DNA from: a virus
Reading direction: 5' to 3' (one strand)
Virus record (IMG/VR): IMGVR_UViG_3300042804_000010
Length of the DNA stretch: 36,614 nucleotides
This document shows positions 128-36,614 of this stretch, in pieces; the stretch's first letter is position 1; each line of letters starts with the position of its first letter. The position numbers and the translations under genes were made by a program. The notes under the pieces were generated by a model that ran no database searches, was not told the DNA's origin, and worked only from the letters and a program-made list of their open reading frames with translations.

Positions 128-1403
128 GAACACTACTTGCAGTTAAATCAGTAGTGCTGGATAAGTCAGTTCCTCCGATGCCATAACGGGGATTTAGCTC
201 CCCAACATCAAAGTTTGCTGTATTATTCAATTCTTCAAAGTTTAACCATGCTTCAGAAGATGTTTCTCTGATATTAAAATCTTTAGTTAATAAGTTTTTA
301 ACTAATAAAGGATTATTTTGTGCTTTATGAACCTTAGTTTCTAAGTTGTCGGTTTTCTTAATAGTACCAAGCCCTGGATTAGCTTTTCTCCAGTTTTTTC
401 TGTCAGTCCATTCGGACCTTTTGTCTAACTCATAAATAATTGGTAAAAATCTTTCGTCTTTATAACCTTCTGGATCATCAAATCCATTAATAATCATTTC
501 TGCTTCATCATACTTTAGGTCGTAAACTTGCTCTCTAACAGTCCCAGCAGTTGTGATCATAAATATTAAAGGTTGTTCTCTTGCTGATGTACCGTCTTTG
601 ATAACATCGTAAAGGTTCTTGTCTTTCCATGCGTGTATCTCATCAAGAGAGGCTCCATGCACATTGAGCCCGTCTAATCTATCGCTGTCAGACCCGAGAG
701 GCACAAAAGTTGAATCATTATGTCGGCCCTTTAATTCTTTAACCAAAGGTTTAATGCTTTTCAGTAAGAATGGTGATTTTTTAACCATTTTCTTAGCTTC
801 TGACCATACTATTTTGGCCTGTTTTTCTTTTGTAGCAACCGCATATATTTCGGCCCCTGGTTCATTATCGGCAACTTGAAGATATAAAGAAATCGCCGAT
901 GAAAGAGTTGATTTTCCATTCTTTCTGGCAACGACTAATAATACTTCTCTATATTTTCTTGTTCTGTTAGTTTTATGAATAAACCCAAAAATAGCTGCTA
1001 TAAAAGCCTTCTGCCAGAGTTCTAATTTAAGCGCCTGGCCTCCCCATTTACCTTTTGATTGTTTGCAAAAATTTTCTATAAACTCAATTGCATGATTAGC
1101 GTGGCCGGCACTATACTCCCACTGGCTTTGATCGTCATGAACATCAGCTACAAGTTTTTTATAAACTTTTTTAACTTTTTTGCAGGCTATTATTTCGCCA
1201 GATTGAATTTTATTATTATATTCAATGATTGGATTATAACTCAAAGGATATCTTATATAATTACTGTTGTTTTTCTTAGTTTTTTCTTTTGTTTTTTTAG
1301 GGTGCTGCCAACATCTCCACTCATTTGGTGGATTATCATTAAATTCTTTTTCTCTGCTGCATCTGCTGCCATCGTTTTTAGTTCCTGAGCATCTAACTAT
1401 CAT
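1..1403 (-). CDS. terL: Terminase large subunit, N-terminal (5') portion; gene continues at 36061-36614 across the circular junction (about 609 aa in total)
   Basis: Manual minus-strand translation from ATG 1403..1401 (2 nt after terS stop) gives MIVRCSGTKNDGSRCS...IEYNNKIQSGEIIACKKV...VVARKNGKST (Walker A-like)...LDEIHAW and runs in frame into MLPDDPTIYCLSMYW, the start of the 36061..36609 track ORF. Absent from the ORF track because it has no stop inside the window. Confidence 0.85.
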   Translation of the reverse strand, partial: MIVRCSGTKNDGSRCSREKEFNDNPPNEWRCWQHPKKTKEKTKKNNSNYIRYPLSYNPIIEYNNKIQSGEIIACKKVKKVYKKLVADVHDDQSQWEYSAGHANHAIEFIENFCKQSKGKWGGQALKLELWQKAFIAAIFGFIHKTNRTRKYREVLLVVARKNGKSTLSSAISLYLQVADNEPGAEIYAVATKEKQAKIVWSEAKKMVKKSPFLLKSIKPLVKELKGRHNDSTFVPLGSDSDRLDGLNVHGASLDEIHAWKDKNLYDVIKDGTSAREQPLIFMITTAGTVREQVYDLKYDEAEMIINGFDDPEGYKDERFLPIIYELDKRSEWTDRKNWRKANPGLGTIKKTDNLETKVHKAQNNPLLVKNLLTKDFNIRETSSEAWLNFEELNNTANFDVGELNPRYGIGGTDLSSTTDLTASSVLFMLPDDPTIYCLSMYWLPEDLLEQRSREDKIPYDQWVKQGY

Positions 1404-1405
1404 CT

Positions 1406-1795
1406 TTAATCAGGCCTCGATGCTTCAAACTTTTCTATAATATTTTCGGGATTAGTAACTTCTTCTTTTGGCAACAAGTCAAGCAATTGCTTCATAACAG
1501 CATTATGTCTATTAACTAATGAAATATAGGTGCTTGCTTCTGGAGATTGTTTAGTACCCCATTGGTTTTCTCCATTCTGATACTTTGATACAACTCCATT
1601 AGCATTGATTTCATCCTGCAAGTCCTGGAGAGTTATGGCCATAAATGCTGCATTTGCAATTAATGACTTTGCTATATCCATTCTCTGGCTATCTATATCT
1701 AAATCTTCTAAAATTGCTCTTAATCTTTCTTTTTCTTCTTTAACTCGCCTATCTTTTTCTAAAAACTCGTTATTTTTAGCTGCTGTATTTGACAT
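1406..1795 (-). CDS. terS: Terminase small subunit (P27-family-like)
   Basis: Track ORF 1406..1870 starts at GTG with no RBS; ATG at 1795 is preceded by GAGGGGGGTG. Product MSNTAAKNNEFLEKDRR...NAVMKQLLDLLP resembles P27-type small terminase; sits immediately upstream of terL. Confidence 0.7.
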   Translation of the reverse strand: MSNTAAKNNEFLEKDRRVKEEKERLRAILEDLDIDSQRMDIAKSLIANAAFMAITLQDLQDEINANGVVSKYQNGENQWGTKQSPEASTYISLVNRHNAVMKQLLDLLPKEEVTNPENIIEKFEASRPD

Positions 1796-1890
1796 TTTAT
1801 ACCACACCCCCCTCGTGAGCTTGATATGTATTAATTGTGTATCCCCTCTCGGTCCCCTGGCAGCCACCACCCCGATAAAAACAGGGGGGG
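1796..1890. other. GC-rich island between HNH endonuclease and terS; candidate cos/packaging site
   Basis: C6 tract at 1807-1812 and G7 tract at 1884-1890, with cccctctcggtcccctggcagccaccacccc between, in an otherwise AT-rich genome; HNH-cos-terS is the usual arrangement in HK97-like cos phages. Confidence 0.4.
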
Positions 1891-2205
1891 CTACCTTTCA
1901 ACCAGCTCTCCATGCTTATTAAACTTCAAACCTTGTCTAACTACCTCCGCACTTGCTCCTACTCCATGTTCCTCGTTATGACAGTCTAAGCACAGGTATT
2001 CTAAGTTATCAAAGTTAAGAGTAATCTCTGGATCATTAATGTTGTCAGGAGTTAAGTATTCAATGTGATGAACTATTTTGCCTGGATTAACCTTGCCATT
2101 CTCCAAGCATCTTTCACACAATCCGTTTACTTCAGCAATATAAGCCTCTCTGCACTCCTGCCATTCTTTACTCTTATAAAAACTTTTAGCCCATTCCTTT
2201 GCCAT
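1891..2205 (-). CDS. HNH endonuclease (terminase-associated)
   Basis: 104-aa ORF with CERC...HHIEYL...N...LCLDCHNEEH, an HNH motif with zinc-binding Cys pairs; directly upstream of terS. Confidence 0.8.
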   Translation of the reverse strand: MAKEWAKSFYKSKEWQECREAYIAEVNGLCERCLENGKVNPGKIVHHIEYLTPDNINDPEITLNFDNLEYLCLDCHNEEHGVGASAEVVRQGLKFNKHGELVER

Positions 2206-2380
2206 CTTTCCAATCCTCCAGGCTAATTATTTCATTATCATCAGCAAAAATATATCTATGATAAGCAAGTATGCAATCAAAGCAAAGTTTATGTTTTTTC
2301 ATATCTTCAGTAGCACTCTTAGAGAAATATTTACTTTCGCATTTGCTGCATGTCTTATCGCCTCTAATAATGGCTGGCAT
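2186..2380 (-). CDS. Small zinc-ribbon protein (CxxC...CxxC)
   Basis: Track ORF 2186..2470; probable true start ATG 2380 preceded by GAGGTGA; product MPAIIRGDKTCSKCES...KLCFDCILAYH. Confidence 0.5.
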   Translation of the reverse strand: MPAIIRGDKTCSKCESKYFSKSATEDMKKHKLCFDCILAYHRYIFADDNEIISLEDWKDGKGMG

Positions 2381-2610
2381 CAAATCACCTCTGGCAAATA
2401 TGTAATATAAACCGGCTGGGCTGGCCGGCAGCAGTATATTATAAAAGAGGTATCCAACAGACGCCCACAACGATTTCTGTAATTATTAGTTTTTGGCATA
2501 GAAAAACCCAGCTCGTCTGGTAACAAGCCGGGCAAAACAATAAAGGAGGAAAGTTATTGAAAAAACTTATACTTTCCATGATATTAATATATCATCTTTT
2601 AAAGCCTTAA

Positions 2611-2640
2611 ATGTTTACTAATTGTTTACTAACTGTTTAT
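2611..2640. repeat. Tandem 11-bp repeat (tgtttactaaN x about 2.7)
   Basis: atgtttactaa ttgtttactaa ctgtttat read directly at 2611-2640, abutting the stop of the 2637..3113 gene. Confidence 0.6.
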
Positions 2641-3113
2641 TTTTTTGCATATCCGAGAATTCTTGCTATTTTCTCTATTGCCTGGTCCTTAAAATCATAA
2701 TATTTGTTTCTTCCCCACTCGAATTTTGGGTGAGTATATATGTTCACATCTTTCTCGAATCTTCCTGTCATATACTTTTTTTCCACTACAAATCTTTCTA
2801 TCGTGTCTAGCGCCTTTAGAGCTTCTTCAATTTTTGCTATCATGCACTCTTTACTTCTTAATTCTTCTTTGAGTTCACTTTCATCTCGATTAATTACTGC
2901 ATTTTCTGTAGCTGATCTAAAATCATTGCTGCCTTTAACGTTTACTCCTTCATAACTTACCCCTCGATTTGACTCAATTAATTCGTCTAATTCTATTCTG
3001 ATTACGGCACATCGCTGTTTATATTCTTTGTAGTTAAGCAGCTCCTTAATTACTCTTGAATAATAATCCTGCATCCAATCACCCTTTTTGTTGAAATAGT
3101 TTAGCGAACTCAT
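2637..3113 (-). CDS. Hypothetical protein; position suggests a late-gene transcriptional activator (ArpU/RinA-like), unverified
   Basis: 158-aa ORF, last gene of the early block immediately upstream of the Zn-ribbon/HNH/terS/terL packaging block; assignment is positional only. Confidence 0.3.
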   Translation of the reverse strand: MSSLNYFNKKGDWMQDYYSRVIKELLNYKEYKQRCAVIRIELDELIESNRGVSYEGVNVKGSNDFRSATENAVINRDESELKEELRSKECMIAKIEEALKALDTIERFVVEKKYMTGRFEKDVNIYTHPKFEWGRNKYYDFKDQAIEKIARILGYAKK

Positions 3114-3321
3114 TAAATATTATTTTTTCTAATTCTTCAGTACTATCCGGGATTTCTTTAATTTTAATTGTTATTGGCTCAATCTTTGTAATTAATTCAT
3201 TAGAATGTTTTTCAAAATAAAAAGTTACATTCCAGGAGTCAATAGTTATGCATTCTTTTCTACCGACCATAAACCCAGTAGTATTGGCTGATATTTTAAT
3301 GATTTCAATATTCACCCGCAA
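3079..3321 (-). CDS. Hypothetical protein (80 aa)
   Basis: ORF in the co-directional early gene array, overlapping neighbours by a few codons. Confidence 0.45.
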   Translation of the reverse strand: MRVNIEIIKISANTTGFMVGRKECITIDSWNVTFYFEKHSNELITKIEPITIKIKEIPDSTEELEKIIFNEFAKLFQQKG

Positions 3322-14476: not shown

Positions 14477-15622
14477 ATGCCTCATATTGAAAAAACTGCA
14501 AATGGAAAGTATAAAGCTGTCATTGAAGTTGGCGCCGGCGCCAGGCGAAAAAGAAGAACAAAAACATTCGAAAGAAAAAAAGATGCAAAAAGCTGGCAAG
14601 CTAATATGTTAGTTGATCAAGAAAAAGGCAGATATGTTTCTTCCGCATCATTAACTGTCGGTGATCATATGCTTGACTGGCTGGATAACGAGAAGAAACC
14701 GCACATCGCCACAACTACTTATGATAATTACAAAAACCGTATAAAAACTTATATTATACCCGAAATAGGATATATTCCATTGCAGGAACTGGAGCCCTTC
14801 CATATTAGCCGATTTATGGGCTATTTAAGAAAGAATGGAAGTGTCAGGAATGATGGCGGCCTGTCTGAAAATACTCTCAAGAAAATATATGTAGTGCTTA
14901 ATTCAGCGATGGAAAAGGCAGTCCAGTGGCGGTTAATAAAATATAACCCAGTCCAGGCGATTGAATCACCACAACCGAAAAAGAAAGAAGCTAAGTCAAT
15001 GAGCTTTGAGGAAGTTCAAAAATTACTTGATTCAGTTAACGATAAATTTATGCACACATTTTTGAGTTTTGCTGTCCTTACCGGAATGAGAAAAAGTGAA
15101 ATGCTTGGCCTAGAGTGGTCAGAAGTTGATTTAGAGAATGAAACTGTCGAAGTAAAAAAGCGATTAGTTGTTAATCAAAATAGTGATCAGGGAATTGAGC
15201 ATGAAGAAGCGACAAAGCGAGAAGCCAGCAGAAGAGTGATTGCGATTCCTTCGAAACTGGCAAAAATATTGAAAAATTATAAGGTCCATCAAACAGAATT
15301 AAGGCTGCAGCTGGCGGATGAATATAATGATGAAAAGCAATTTGTTTTCTGTAAGTCTGACGGGAATCCTTATTATCCGTCAACAATTACTAGAAATGCA
15401 AAAAAGGCCATACTCAGAGCTGATTTAAGCTCCGAATACAGCCTTCATACATTGCGCCATACATTCGCTACCTTGCAACTTAAAACCGGGACAGATGCCA
15501 AAACTATACAAGAAATGCTCGGTCATGGGAATATCTCCACTACTATGGATATATACTCTCATGTTGATATTGACATGCAGAAAGAAGCCGCAAAGAAATT
15601 AGAAAATGAGATTGTTATTTAG
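14477..15622 (+). CDS. int: Tyrosine integrase (site-specific recombinase)
   Basis: C-terminal catalytic pattern ...HTLRHTFATLQL...LGHGNISTTMDIYSHV (R...HxxR...Y) and N-terminal SAM-like domain. Confidence 0.85.
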   Translation: MPHIEKTANGKYKAVIEVGAGARRKRRTKTFERKKDAKSWQANMLVDQEKGRYVSSASLTVGDHMLDWLDNEKKPHIATTTYDNYKNRIKTYIIPEIGYIPLQELEPFHISRFMGYLRKNGSVRNDGGLSENTLKKIYVVLNSAMEKAVQWRLIKYNPVQAIESPQPKKKEAKSMSFEEVQKLLDSVNDKFMHTFLSFAVLTGMRKSEMLGLEWSEVDLENETVEVKKRLVVNQNSDQGIEHEEATKREASRRVIAIPSKLAKILKNYKVHQTELRLQLADEYNDEKQFVFCKSDGNPYYPSTITRNAKKAILRADLSSEYSLHTLRHTFATLQLKTGTDAKTIQEMLGHGNISTTMDIYSHVDIDMQKEAAKKLENEIVI

Positions 15623-16789: not shown

Positions 16790-16825
16790 CAAATAAAAAA
16801 AGGACAACCACGAAGGCTGTCCTGT
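16790..16825 (-). terminator. Rho-independent terminator (minus strand) downstream of the tRNA-like fragment
   Basis: Hairpin aggacaacc/ggctgtcct (9-bp stem, one mismatch, 5-nt loop) at 16801-16823, followed on the minus strand by tttttttattt. Confidence 0.6.
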
Positions 16826-16837
16826 TAGTATTCTTAA

Positions 16838-16887
16838 TGGTGCGCCCGACAGGATTCGAACCTGTGGCCTACGGATTAGAAGTCCGT
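16838..16887 (-). other. 3' half of a tRNA-Arg(UCU)-like sequence (anticodon arm, variable loop, T-arm, acceptor 3' strand, CCA); candidate attP core
   Basis: Minus-strand read ACGGA-CTTCTAA-TCCGT AGGCC ACAGG-TTCGAAT-CCTGT CGGGCGC A CCA; the upstream 5' part has only weak acceptor complementarity (GCGCAAG) and no D-arm, so it is not a complete tRNA. Confidence 0.6.
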
Positions 16888-16939
16888 AAGAGGTGAAATC
16901 TTGCGCTTTCTTATGTTTTCTTTTGTTGCGACATTTAGT

Positions 16940-36060: not shown

Positions 36061-36614
36061 CTAAATCATGTTTTCATACTCTTGCATTTTGTCTTGGAGT
36101 ATCACATAAGCATTAAGCATTGCAGCTGTACCATCAATTCTTTTTCTTTGATTACGCTGCTTTGCGGGTTGTATATTAAGATTTTTATCTATATCAACTG
36201 AGGTATTACTCAAACACCATTTAGTTATTGGATTGTTGTCATAATTAATTTTATGAGCTTTTAAATCAGCCCCCAGTTGTTTCATTGGTCCTGATAATGT
36301 TTTTTTACCCTGGATAACTGGAATCATTGCTTCTTTACCAAAATGACCTTGCATTTCCTCAACCCAGTAATTAGCACTCCAGGAGTCATAACCAATCCAG
36401 GGAATATAAATATCTAATTCATTTTGGACCTCTAAATACCACCGAGTAACAAATTTCGGATGCACTTTGTTGCCTGGAGTGGTTCTCATATAACCTTGTT
36501 TAACCCACTGGTCATAAGGAATTTTATCTTCTCTGGAACGCTGCTCTAATAAATCTTCTGGCAGCCAATACATAGATAAACAATATATTGTCGGATCATC
36601 TGGAAGCATAAAAA
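36061..36614 (-). CDS. terL: Terminase large subunit, C-terminal (nuclease) portion; 5' part is at 1-1403
   Basis: Track ORF 36061..36609 is in frame with the manually translated ORF ending at window position 1; 36488-36614 duplicates 1-127. Confidence 0.85.
   Translation of the reverse strand, partial: FMLPDDPTIYCLSMYWLPEDLLEQRSREDKIPYDQWVKQGYMRTTPGNKVHPKFVTRWYLEVQNELDIYIPWIGYDSWSANYWVEEMQGHFGKEAMIPVIQGKKTLSGPMKQLGADLKAHKINYDNNPITKWCLSNTSVDIDKNLNIQPAKQRNQRKRIDGTAAMLNAYVILQDKMQEYENMI

Follow-up and report, generated by a model that had tools for sequence, protein, structure and literature searches.

The window, by which we mean the whole 36,614-nt stretch of DNA analysed here (IMG/VR record IMGVR_UViG_3300042804_000010), carries an exact 127-bp terminal repeat and can therefore be regarded as a complete, circularly assembled genome of 36,487 bp. 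The source is a temperate Halanaerobium siphophage/prophage, and arpU genes identical to that of the window are present in assemblies of Halanaerobium salsuginis and H. saccharolyticum; the phage itself resides on a 37-kb contig of H. saccharolyticum MA284_T2. The region of interest is the non-coding gap at 2381-2636, bounded by the stop codon of an ArpU-like gene and the ATG of a Zn-ribbon ORF (Table 1); its 256 bp agree with the length of about 256 bp given in an earlier, sequence-only reading of this DNA. All genes around the gap lie on the minus strand. The ArpU-like gene is the last one of the early/replication block, in which it is preceded by SSB, VRR-NUC and HNHc_6 genes, and it is found directly upstream of the packaging genes (HNH, terS and terL), in the same orientation. 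Within the late operon no strong internal minus-strand terminator was found before its end at 16801-16823, so that processive antitermination beyond the leader would not be called for. When positions 1300-3300 were compared by BLASTN with 50,697 phage records, the HNH gene alone was matched (67-71% identity), and the control region was left unmatched. A minus-strand ORF at 2439-2579 (46 aa), which begins at the predicted start site discussed below, was not accepted as a gene, since close relatives carry indels that alter its frame.

Table 1. Features of the control region and its flanking genes, in window coordinates
Feature	Position	Strand	Remarks
ArpU-like late regulator gene	2637..3074	-	ORF open to 3113; stop TAA 2639-2637
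Three TAAACA hexamers, putative ArpU sites	2634-2639, 2623-2628, 2612-2617	-	exact 11-bp spacing
Spacer, last hexamer to TG of the extended -10, 17 nt	2595..2611	-	length conserved, sequence not
Extended -10 TGATATATT of the proposed ArpU-dependent late promoter	2586..2594	-	position kept in all relatives
Predicted transcription start	2577..2579	-	7-9 nt after the -10 hexamer
Stem-loop P1 (GGAAAGU ... ACUUUCC), U-rich loop	2548..2577	-	-6.5 kcal/mol, z = -2.3
Polypyrimidine tract UUUCCUCCUUU	2542..2552	-	resembles the 3' end of 16S rRNA
Intrinsic terminator T1, 12-bp stem (2506-2533) + U5	2501..2533	-	-19.2 kcal/mol
Post-terminator segment ending in GC box TGTGGGCGTCTG (box 2458-2469)	2458..2500	-	88% identical to L050
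TATAAT hexamer (rival promoter "P2")	2438..2443	-	8 nt before H2; no -35, no TG extension
Hairpin H2 (GCCGGC-CAGCCCA-GCCGGU)	2411..2429	-	-9.9 kcal/mol
Small ORF encoding MKKLILSMILIYHLLKP	2557..2610	+	TTG start 7 nt after AAAGGAGG
Zn-ribbon gene, 64 aa, first late gene	2186..2380	-	ATG 2380-2378; Shine-Dalgarno GAGGTG 2386-2391
HNH endonuclease gene	1891-2205	-	Pfam HNH E = 3e-8
terS-like gene	1406-1795	-	Terminase_4 weak; phrog_1066 2e-29
terL	1403 to window start, resumes at the far end of the circular contig	-	TerL_ATPase + TerL_nuclease

Sequence comparisons support the assignment of the upstream gene to the ArpU/Ltr type of regulators. Since its homologues are mostly 145-151 aa long and start at the methionine at 3074, we take this position to be the true start of arpU. 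The predicted protein matches the TIGR01637 phage_arpU model with an E-value of 4.2e-9 and 36.7 bits, which is below the cut-off of that model (43.1 bits), and it matches PHROG 36 and PHROG 248 ("transcriptional regulator/activator") at about 1e-11; a Pfam search with the same protein gave no match. We found 34 ArpU homologues, some of them named ArpU by JGI and one carrying PF05263, and a TBLASTN search against the phage records retrieved phi105-type ArpU proteins alone, with 41% identity over the C-terminal 43% of the query. An AlphaFold model of the protein (pLDDT 73) showed weak local matches to sigma region 4 (1rio_H, 3hug), while a Foldseek search of the PDB with this model returned nothing with an E-value below 0.8, and no Q protein, and the sequence profile had no match in the PDB. 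In view of that pLDDT and the lack of a significant PDB match, the likeness to sigma region 4 should be treated as a weak lead.

At the end of arpU lie the tandem 11-bp repeats to which the sequence-only reading had drawn attention, and which Tandem Repeats Finder places at 2608-2639 (period 11, 2.9 copies, 90% matches, score 50). They contain three TAAACA hexamers, the first of which overlaps the arpU stop codon. In the 36.6-kb window, TTAGTAAACA is found as an exact 10-mer at 2612-2621 and 2623-2632 only, and TAAACA-N5-TAAACA, for which 0.51 matches are expected, has two overlapping matches, confined within the window to the repeats of the gap. Ltr proteins, including ArpU of phiFL2A, bind direct repeats located just distal to their own coding sequence; specificity both requires these repeats and is fully conferred by them, and the ltr terminator is located in the same gap (Quiles-Puchalt et al. 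2013, PMC3753634). By analogy with these published homologous systems, the three hexamers would be the binding sites of ArpU. The earlier suggestion that an activator-dependent late promoter or regulatory site is to be sought here is borne out in so far as an ArpU/Ltr-type gene lies upstream and the repeats occupy the position published for Ltr sites.

Relatives of this region were collected by protein-guided searches of IMG/VR, JGI, ENA and Logan (metagenomes, genomes and assembled runs) and from two Halanaerobium genomes, yielding about 30 distinct related loci that fall into eight lineages with 52-100% ArpU identity; the lineages are homologous and do not represent independent observations. 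A second scan of IMG/VR, using a protein alignment, added no new loci, and the search of the genome collection gave just the two Halanaerobium matches. A DNA-pattern scan of IMG/VR for TAAACR-N5-TAAACA-N16-17-TGNTANNNT produced 115 matches, and after filtering the same family alone was left. In every lineage three to four hexamers of the general type (T/C/A)RRAC(A/G), read on the gene strand, abut or overlap the end of arpU. The hexamer sequence itself is lineage-specific (TAAACA, TGAACG, TGGACA or CAAACA/CGGACA), and the 11-nt register is kept in 19 out of 19 distinct relatives, so that the repeats are conserved, whereas a lack of conservation was what the sequence-only reading had named as a reason to give up the suggestion of a regulatory site. 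Next comes, again in every lineage, a spacer of 16-17 nt followed by TGnTAnnnT; the spacer is 17 nt long in 18 of the 19 distinct sequences and 16 nt in L019, and its sequence has diverged widely between lineages.

In the window this motif is an extended -10 element that forms the left half of a 16-bp palindrome, TGATATATTAATATCA (2579-2594). Elements resembling a -10 hexamer are common in such AT-rich DNA (TGNTATANT occurs 13 times in the window, compared with 8.6 occurrences expected), and the extended -10 is one of just three minus-strand TGNTATANT matches in the window. Each of the relatives, moreover, has exactly one TGnTAnnnT in the first 110 nt, at a constant offset, and the mirror-image -10 on the opposite strand never ends in T, which indicates that the promoter reads in the direction of the genes. 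The proposed promoter has no -35. Its geometry would place the start near 2577-2579, and the hexamers at about -60 to -33 relative to a start near 2579, an arrangement that matches the starts of phi13 (TSS23, PMC13123087) and of TP901-1 (Plate). The best promoter candidate in the gap is one that abuts the repeats and is not near the hairpins; the sequence-only reading named no promoter, and besides the extended -10 (2586-2594) it overlooked the UUUCCUCCUUU tract (2542-2552) and the box TGTGGGCGTCTG (2458-2469).

A leader of about 200 nt separates the predicted start from the first late gene. In all lineages the sequence downstream of the -10 was found to carry a stem-loop region, a CCUCC tract and a GC-rich hairpin. 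The structures were folded for each lineage separately, as MAFFT followed by RNAalifold misplaced terminators of unequal length on the leader and resulted in a poor consensus. Lineages A', B, C, L016 and L059 have a stem that is equivalent to P1 and partly different from it in sequence; in L019 such a stem is not clear. The CCUCC tract occurs in eight of eight lineages, 5-16 nt before the terminator hairpin, and on the plus strand the tract region of the window reads as a perfect Shine-Dalgarno sequence. Both elements lie in a segment that is better conserved than the regulator gene: P1 plus CCUCC are 78-86% identical between lineages, as opposed to 73-79% for the arpU coding sequence, and in family C the P1/CCUCC and post-terminator segments are 86-88% identical, as opposed to 73% for arpU.

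The intrinsic terminator T1 is the strongest structure in the region (z = -5.8; none of 200 shuffled sequences folds as well). What had been described as a weaker ccag-n5-ctgg stem at 2508-2520 turns out to be the tip of its 12-bp stem (2506-2533), and that ranking has to be reversed. T1 ends the arpU mRNA and would also fall within the proposed late transcript, at about +47 to +78. Its stems vary between lineages through compensatory changes and through changes from G.U to A-U or G-C, which preserve pairing only in the minus-strand RNA; since the G.U pairs of the hairpin would be C-A mismatches on the opposite strand, selection appears to act on the minus-strand RNA. The GC-rich hairpin that follows CCUCC has a U tract in six of the eight lineages, L016 and L019 being those without it. 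We looked for an alternative (antiterminator) fold that would disrupt T1 and found none, P1 and T1 folding independently. It may be remarked that a strong terminator 47 nt into a proposed late transcript is awkward, and calls for an extra assumption.

Beyond T1, the segment ending in the GC box is 88% identical to that of family C (L050), compared with 73% for the arpU coding sequence, the box having been aligned by eye, and it is missing from lineages L015, B, L016, L019 and L059. Part of the box, UGGGC..CUG, is complementary to the loop of hairpin H2 (CAGCCCA), and family C keeps both GGGC and GCCC. H2 is the GC-rich hairpin of the sequence-only reading: the hairpin does exist (2411-2429), whereas the T-rich run said to follow it on the minus strand does not, a U tract being absent both from the window and from family C. 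The hairpin is followed by UUUAUAUUAC in the window, by CUUAUUAUAA in L050 and by UAUAUUAUAA in L061. A terminator scan accepted H2 marginally, and its folding energy is nothing unusual for such a base composition (z = -0.97, with 28 of 200 shuffled sequences folding equally well). It precedes the Shine-Dalgarno sequence (2386-2391) of the first late gene by some 20 nt, is invariant in lineage A even where the flanks and the downstream genes are different, and has a counterpart at the same site in family C, GCCAG-UUUGCCCG-CUGGC. H2 is thus better read as a conserved leader element than as a terminator, a view supported by its conservation and not by its fold energy. A search of Rfam with the window and 10 related loci, at gathering as well as permissive thresholds, detected tRNAs only, the best sub-threshold match being RsaOG (22.3 bits, E = 0.34).

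The mosaic structure of these phages shows which parts of the region belong together. L008-L012 have a different Zn-ribbon/HNH/terS/terL block, and their nucleotide similarity to the window ends at 2406; mosaic breakpoints are found at 2406 and at 2398/2391. In L004-L007, tRNA or tRNA-like genes are inserted directly after H2. In L060 the cassette breaks off right after P1, and a Terminase_2 terS follows about 65 nt further on, so that the repeat-proximal promoter is the sole one remaining; in L060, as in L036, the terminator is absent altogether. The next Shine-Dalgarno sequence is 18 nt past the terminator in L015 and about 45-55 nt past it in L021/L022, distances that leave little room for another promoter. 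The cassette travels with arpU and not with the packaging genes, and its boundaries single out the repeats, the -10 and P1 as a constant core that moves together with arpU and that offers, in several phages, the sole plausible late-gene promoter.

We consider it probable (roughly 0.7) that the gap is a late-gene control region in which ArpU, positioned at the hexamers, activates the repeat-proximal extended -10 promoter. Directly observed are the sequence elements themselves, the way in which they are conserved and spaced, and the compensatory changes of the hairpins. According to this proposal ArpU, the product of the last early gene, would bind the three TAAACA hexamers at -60 to -33 on one face of the helix, the hexamers being one helical turn apart and overlapping the end of ArpU's own gene, and the bound protein would activate host sigma-A RNA polymerase at the adjacent extended -10 promoter, which lacks a -35. 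Late transcription would then proceed on the minus strand from near 2579, across the leader of about 200 nt with P1, the CCUCC tract, T1, the GC box and H2, to the Zn-ribbon, HNH, terS and terL genes, and on through the remainder of the late operon, which serves packaging, head, tail and lysis. T1 would stop early transcripts that read out of arpU, and the late genes would for this reason be silent until ArpU accumulates. Because the operator overlaps the arpU stop codon, no terminator can sit between the gene and the promoter, and late transcripts would have to cross T1, either because the terminator is leaky or because an ArpU-loaded polymerase is resistant to it. That late transcripts do read through T1 is suggested by the geometry of the region.

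Judged by its sequence, the region is a clear member of the Ltr (RinA/ArpU/Alt) late control class. In the comparison with RinA/ArpU-regulated phages that the sequence-only reading had recommended, the same layout can be read directly in the sequences of phiFL2A, phi13, 80alpha and TP901-1, and the placement of the repeats at the end of the regulator gene is common to the window, phiFL2A, 80alpha, phi13 and phi105. In phiFL2A (Ltr family I) we observed three TTGGCGG repeats of period 11 right after the stop codon, then 18 nt and TGCTAATAT, followed by a leader in which a long stem, a hairpin with CCUCC and U6, and a tRNA precede a 12-bp hairpin immediately ahead of terS. The likeness to the window therefore extends from three repeats with an 11-bp period, a 17-18 nt spacer and an extended -10 (TGCTAATAT compared with TGATATATT) to a leader stem-loop, a U-rich CCUCC hairpin and a second strong hairpin before the Shine-Dalgarno sequence of the first late gene, and tRNA genes are located in the leader both of phiFL2A itself and of relatives of the window. 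In contrast, the repeats differ in sequence (TTGGCGG and TAAACA, respectively), the stem at the position of P1 is much longer in phiFL2A, the gap is 794 bp rather than 256 bp, the first late gene is terS, with no Zn-ribbon or HNH gene, and the two ArpU proteins are too distant to be detected by TBLASTN. Binding and activation have been demonstrated experimentally for phiFL2A and are predicted for the window.

The regulators of phi13 (Ltr family IV) and TP901-1 (Alt) belong to families other than that of the window, and their start sites have been defined experimentally, whereas that of the window is predicted. In phi13 the repeats at -107 to -42 are required for Ltr action, and a TATA box at -15 to -5 of the mapped start has been verified by mutation (PMC13123087); in TP901-1, Alt binds repeats at -76 to -32 (PMC3152322). 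The window, with its predicted hexamer positions of -60 to -33, may be set beside these two ranges. The phi13 promoter P23 resembles that of the window in that TATAAT and TSS23 are followed by an intrinsic-terminator-like hairpin inside the leader, at +26 to +50, as is the case for T1, and differs from it in having 18-bp repeats, the last of which is 29 nt away from the -10. In TP901-1 the repeats are followed by TGATATACT and a terminator-like hairpin precedes terS, but a small hairpin is found before the -10 and not after it. In 80alpha we found two TGGCAGT repeats with an 11-bp period right after the rinA stop codon, a -10-like TATTAT 20 nt further on, and a leader with a stem-loop, a UUUCCCUU tract and a strong terminator, after which comes the first late gene; here, however, the accepted promoter is not the repeat-proximal one, as the published 5' end is downstream of the terminator.

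A common plan is found across four regulator families: the repeats come first, then a -10 and a leader containing one or two terminator-like hairpins, and finally the first late gene. This design is known from staphylococcal, enterococcal and lactococcal phages and is in that respect largely ordinary; what is new is the Halanaerobiales host clade. Until now the Ltr/ArpU late switch had been investigated in Bacilli (Staphylococcus, Enterococcus, Lactococcus and Listeria). It is hereby extended to phages of Halanaerobium, which are halophilic anaerobes of a separate order, and for these phages we can offer a precise putative operator (three copies of TAAACA) and a testable promoter prediction. 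The shared plan also poses the question of how late transcripts cross the terminator of the regulator's own gene, a question that bears on the mechanism of RinA.

One may consider, as a tentative and in our view doubtful answer, that Ltr regulators (ArpU, RinA, LtrC) also make RNA polymerase resist the intrinsic terminator(s) of the leader, in the manner of lambda Q. A late promoter between the stop codon of the regulator and the regulator's terminator is found in the window phage and its relatives, in phi13 (by its published start) and in 80alpha (by sequence). As at lambda PR'/tR', the regulator site is at the late promoter and a short leader ends in an intrinsic terminator that has to be crossed; T1 lies between the regulated promoter and the late genes, and the same holds in phi13 with respect to TSS23. 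On the other hand, the ArpU model is unlike any Q protein, and PR' is constitutive whereas Ltr promoters need their regulator for activity. No sigma-dependent pause element could be identified in the region of the window, and a literature search on RinA and antitermination yielded nothing relevant, antitermination by Ltr proteins being unreported. If the suggestion were true, early read-through would stop at the terminator while transcripts from the regulator-bound promoter would continue, and it would be explained why RinA requires sequences that lie over 155 bp ahead of the apparent 5' end of terS, that end being a processed one. Under such a reading, P1 and the CCUCC tract could be part of the signal by which polymerase is loaded.

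An alternative that needs no read-through of T1, and which we regard as unlikely, although it fares best among the rival explanations, is that late transcription starts near 2431 from the TATAAT at 2438-2443, with H2 as a protective mRNA 5' end. ArpU at the repeats, some 180 bp upstream, would then act at a distance, T1 would just end the arpU transcript and the extended -10 would be incidental. This would be in line with phi11 and 80alpha, for which the RinA-dependent 5' end was placed by RACE 23-24 nt before terS, downstream of the terminator (PMC3152322), and more than 155 bp from the RinA site (PMC3152322; Ferrer et al. 2011). The TATAAT of the window is a perfect hexamer, and all relatives in lineages A and C have a -10-like hexamer before H2, the relatives showing TAGAAT, TATTAT or CAGAAT at this site. 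However, with neither a -35 nor a TG extension the site went unreported by the promoter scan, and its distance from the conserved GC box is variable (14-18 nt), changing by 4 nt among close relatives. The whole module of box, TATAAT and H2 is absent from L015, B, L016, L019, L059 and L060, all of which keep the repeats and the extended -10, and the experimentally defined starts of phi13 and TP901-1 adjoin the repeats.

Less probable still is a small RNA of about 78 nt (from 2579 to about 2501) that would comprise P1, a single-stranded CCUCCUUU seed and the terminator hairpin, the late genes being driven separately. The Shine-Dalgarno sequences of mRNAs from the host or the phage could be bound by its seed, and such an RNA would in fact be compatible with a repeat-proximal late promoter, the 6S RNA of lambda PR' providing a parallel for a small RNA that coexists with a late promoter. 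A unit running from promoter to terminator is typical small RNA architecture, the 80-nt fold is stable (-25.7 kcal/mol, z = -4.8), and the CCUCC tract is present in all lineages and more conserved than coding sequence. Nevertheless, no Rfam family was matched, L016 and L019 have no U tract, L060 and L036 have no terminator, and a CCUCC seed would have no target specificity. A small RNA alone would also leave those lineages that have no second promoter unable to express their late genes.

We give very little credence to the view that the conserved plus-strand GGAGG is a real ribosome-binding site, and that a short peptide or an antisense RNA produced from 2557-2610, a stretch overlapping the proposed late promoter and the 3' end of arpU, would interfere with arpU or with late transcription. 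In six of the eight lineages a perfect Shine-Dalgarno sequence is indeed followed after 5-10 nt by a start codon and A-rich codons, and a weak plus-strand promoter-like site (TTGAAA-17-GATATT) exists at 2557-2585, but the latter falls inside the small ORF itself. Furthermore, neither the sequence of the peptide nor its length (8-18 aa) or frame is conserved, a frameshift affects the close relative L004, the start position of L056 is occupied by ACG, and L016 lacks a start codon altogether; there is no plus-strand gene downstream, and the G.U pairs of the neighbouring hairpin reflect selection on the minus-strand RNA. This small ORF is probably not a gene. Finally, the least probable explanation of all would give the repeats, the GC hairpin or both a role in packaging (as terS sites or a cos site) or in replication (as iterons), rather than in transcription. 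The region does lie just upstream of an HNH-terS-terL block, as is typical of cos phages, and cosB and pac sites are also known to contain repeats spaced by a helical turn, but exchange of the packaging block leaves the cassette with arpU, the overlap of the repeats with the arpU stop codon is of the kind seen for Ltr sites (PMC3753634), and a better cos candidate is the GC-rich HNH-terS stretch at about 1795-1895.

The two ends of the window carry an exact direct repeat of 127 bp (1-127 = 36488-36614), and because of this repeat the window is the complete, circularly assembled genome of a phage, 36,487 bp in length and cut within terL. When the ends are joined with the repeat left untrimmed, the terL reading frame is broken.

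Within the proposed ArpU-linked late control cassette, a 16-bp palindrome, TGATATATTAATATCA (2579-2594), has the extended -10 as its left half; it is unchanged across lineages A to C of the relatives and is missing from L016, L019 and L059. Such a palindrome could be the operator of a second, dimeric regulator. Further into the leader, the loop of the GC hairpin H2 (CAGCCCA, 2416-2422) is complementary to a conserved box, UGUGGGCGUCUG (2458-2469), with 5 + 3 base pairs and a 2-nt bulge, and in family C the box retains GGGC while GCCC is found in an H2 loop of otherwise different sequence. Box and loop could form a pseudoknot or serve as two paired sites for protein.

In two relatives the likeness to the cassette ends at a nearly identical point, directly past the leader stem-loop P1. 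In the Halanaerobium salsuginis locus L036 (~2938-3040) the sequence that follows is unrelated and the contig ends 375 nt further on, which may be the trace of an insertion element; in L060 (~330-390) P1 is followed directly by a terS gene, without a terminator. The TerS of L060 and the TerL of the window have in common an N-terminal Cys-rich motif, GSRC(S/T)REKEF...EWRCWQH, which suggests that the motif is a small zinc-binding module, mobile among packaging proteins.

The interval between HNH and terS, which is where the cos site lies in HNH-type cos phages, has the highest GC content within the first 6 kb of the window (53-55%) and contains runs of C7 and G7. Just upstream of it, at window position 1894-1900, relatives L001-L004 have 243-346 bp of extra DNA, coding in L001 for an ORF of ~76 aa.

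Coordinates of features in the window and in related or comparison loci
Feature	Locus	Coordinates	Strand	Position or remark
GC-rich stretch	window	1795-1895	minus	HNH stop codon to terS start
Cys-rich motif	window	~1300-1403		terL N-terminus
Cys-rich motif	L060	389-500		
tRNA-Tyr	L007	1454-1542		directly after H2
two tRNAs	L019	4196-4345		downstream of terminator hairpin
tRNA-Arg	L181 (phiFL2A)	14629-14703		within late leader
tRNA-like insert	L004-L006	~100 nt past H2		acceptor and T arms good
strong terminator	window	16823-16801	minus	late operon end
near-consensus promoter with TG extension	window	16968-16940	minus	late operon end
tRNA-like stretch	window	16841-16906		late operon end; Rfam tRNA, 32.5 bits

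In several phages the late leader houses tRNA genes. The tRNA-like insert of L004-L006 was recognised by neither ARAGORN nor Rfam, possibly owing to a disrupted anticodon region or an intron there. At the end of the late operon the tRNA-like stretch likewise received no call from ARAGORN, and since the integrase block adjoins, it may represent an attP core of tRNA-gene origin.
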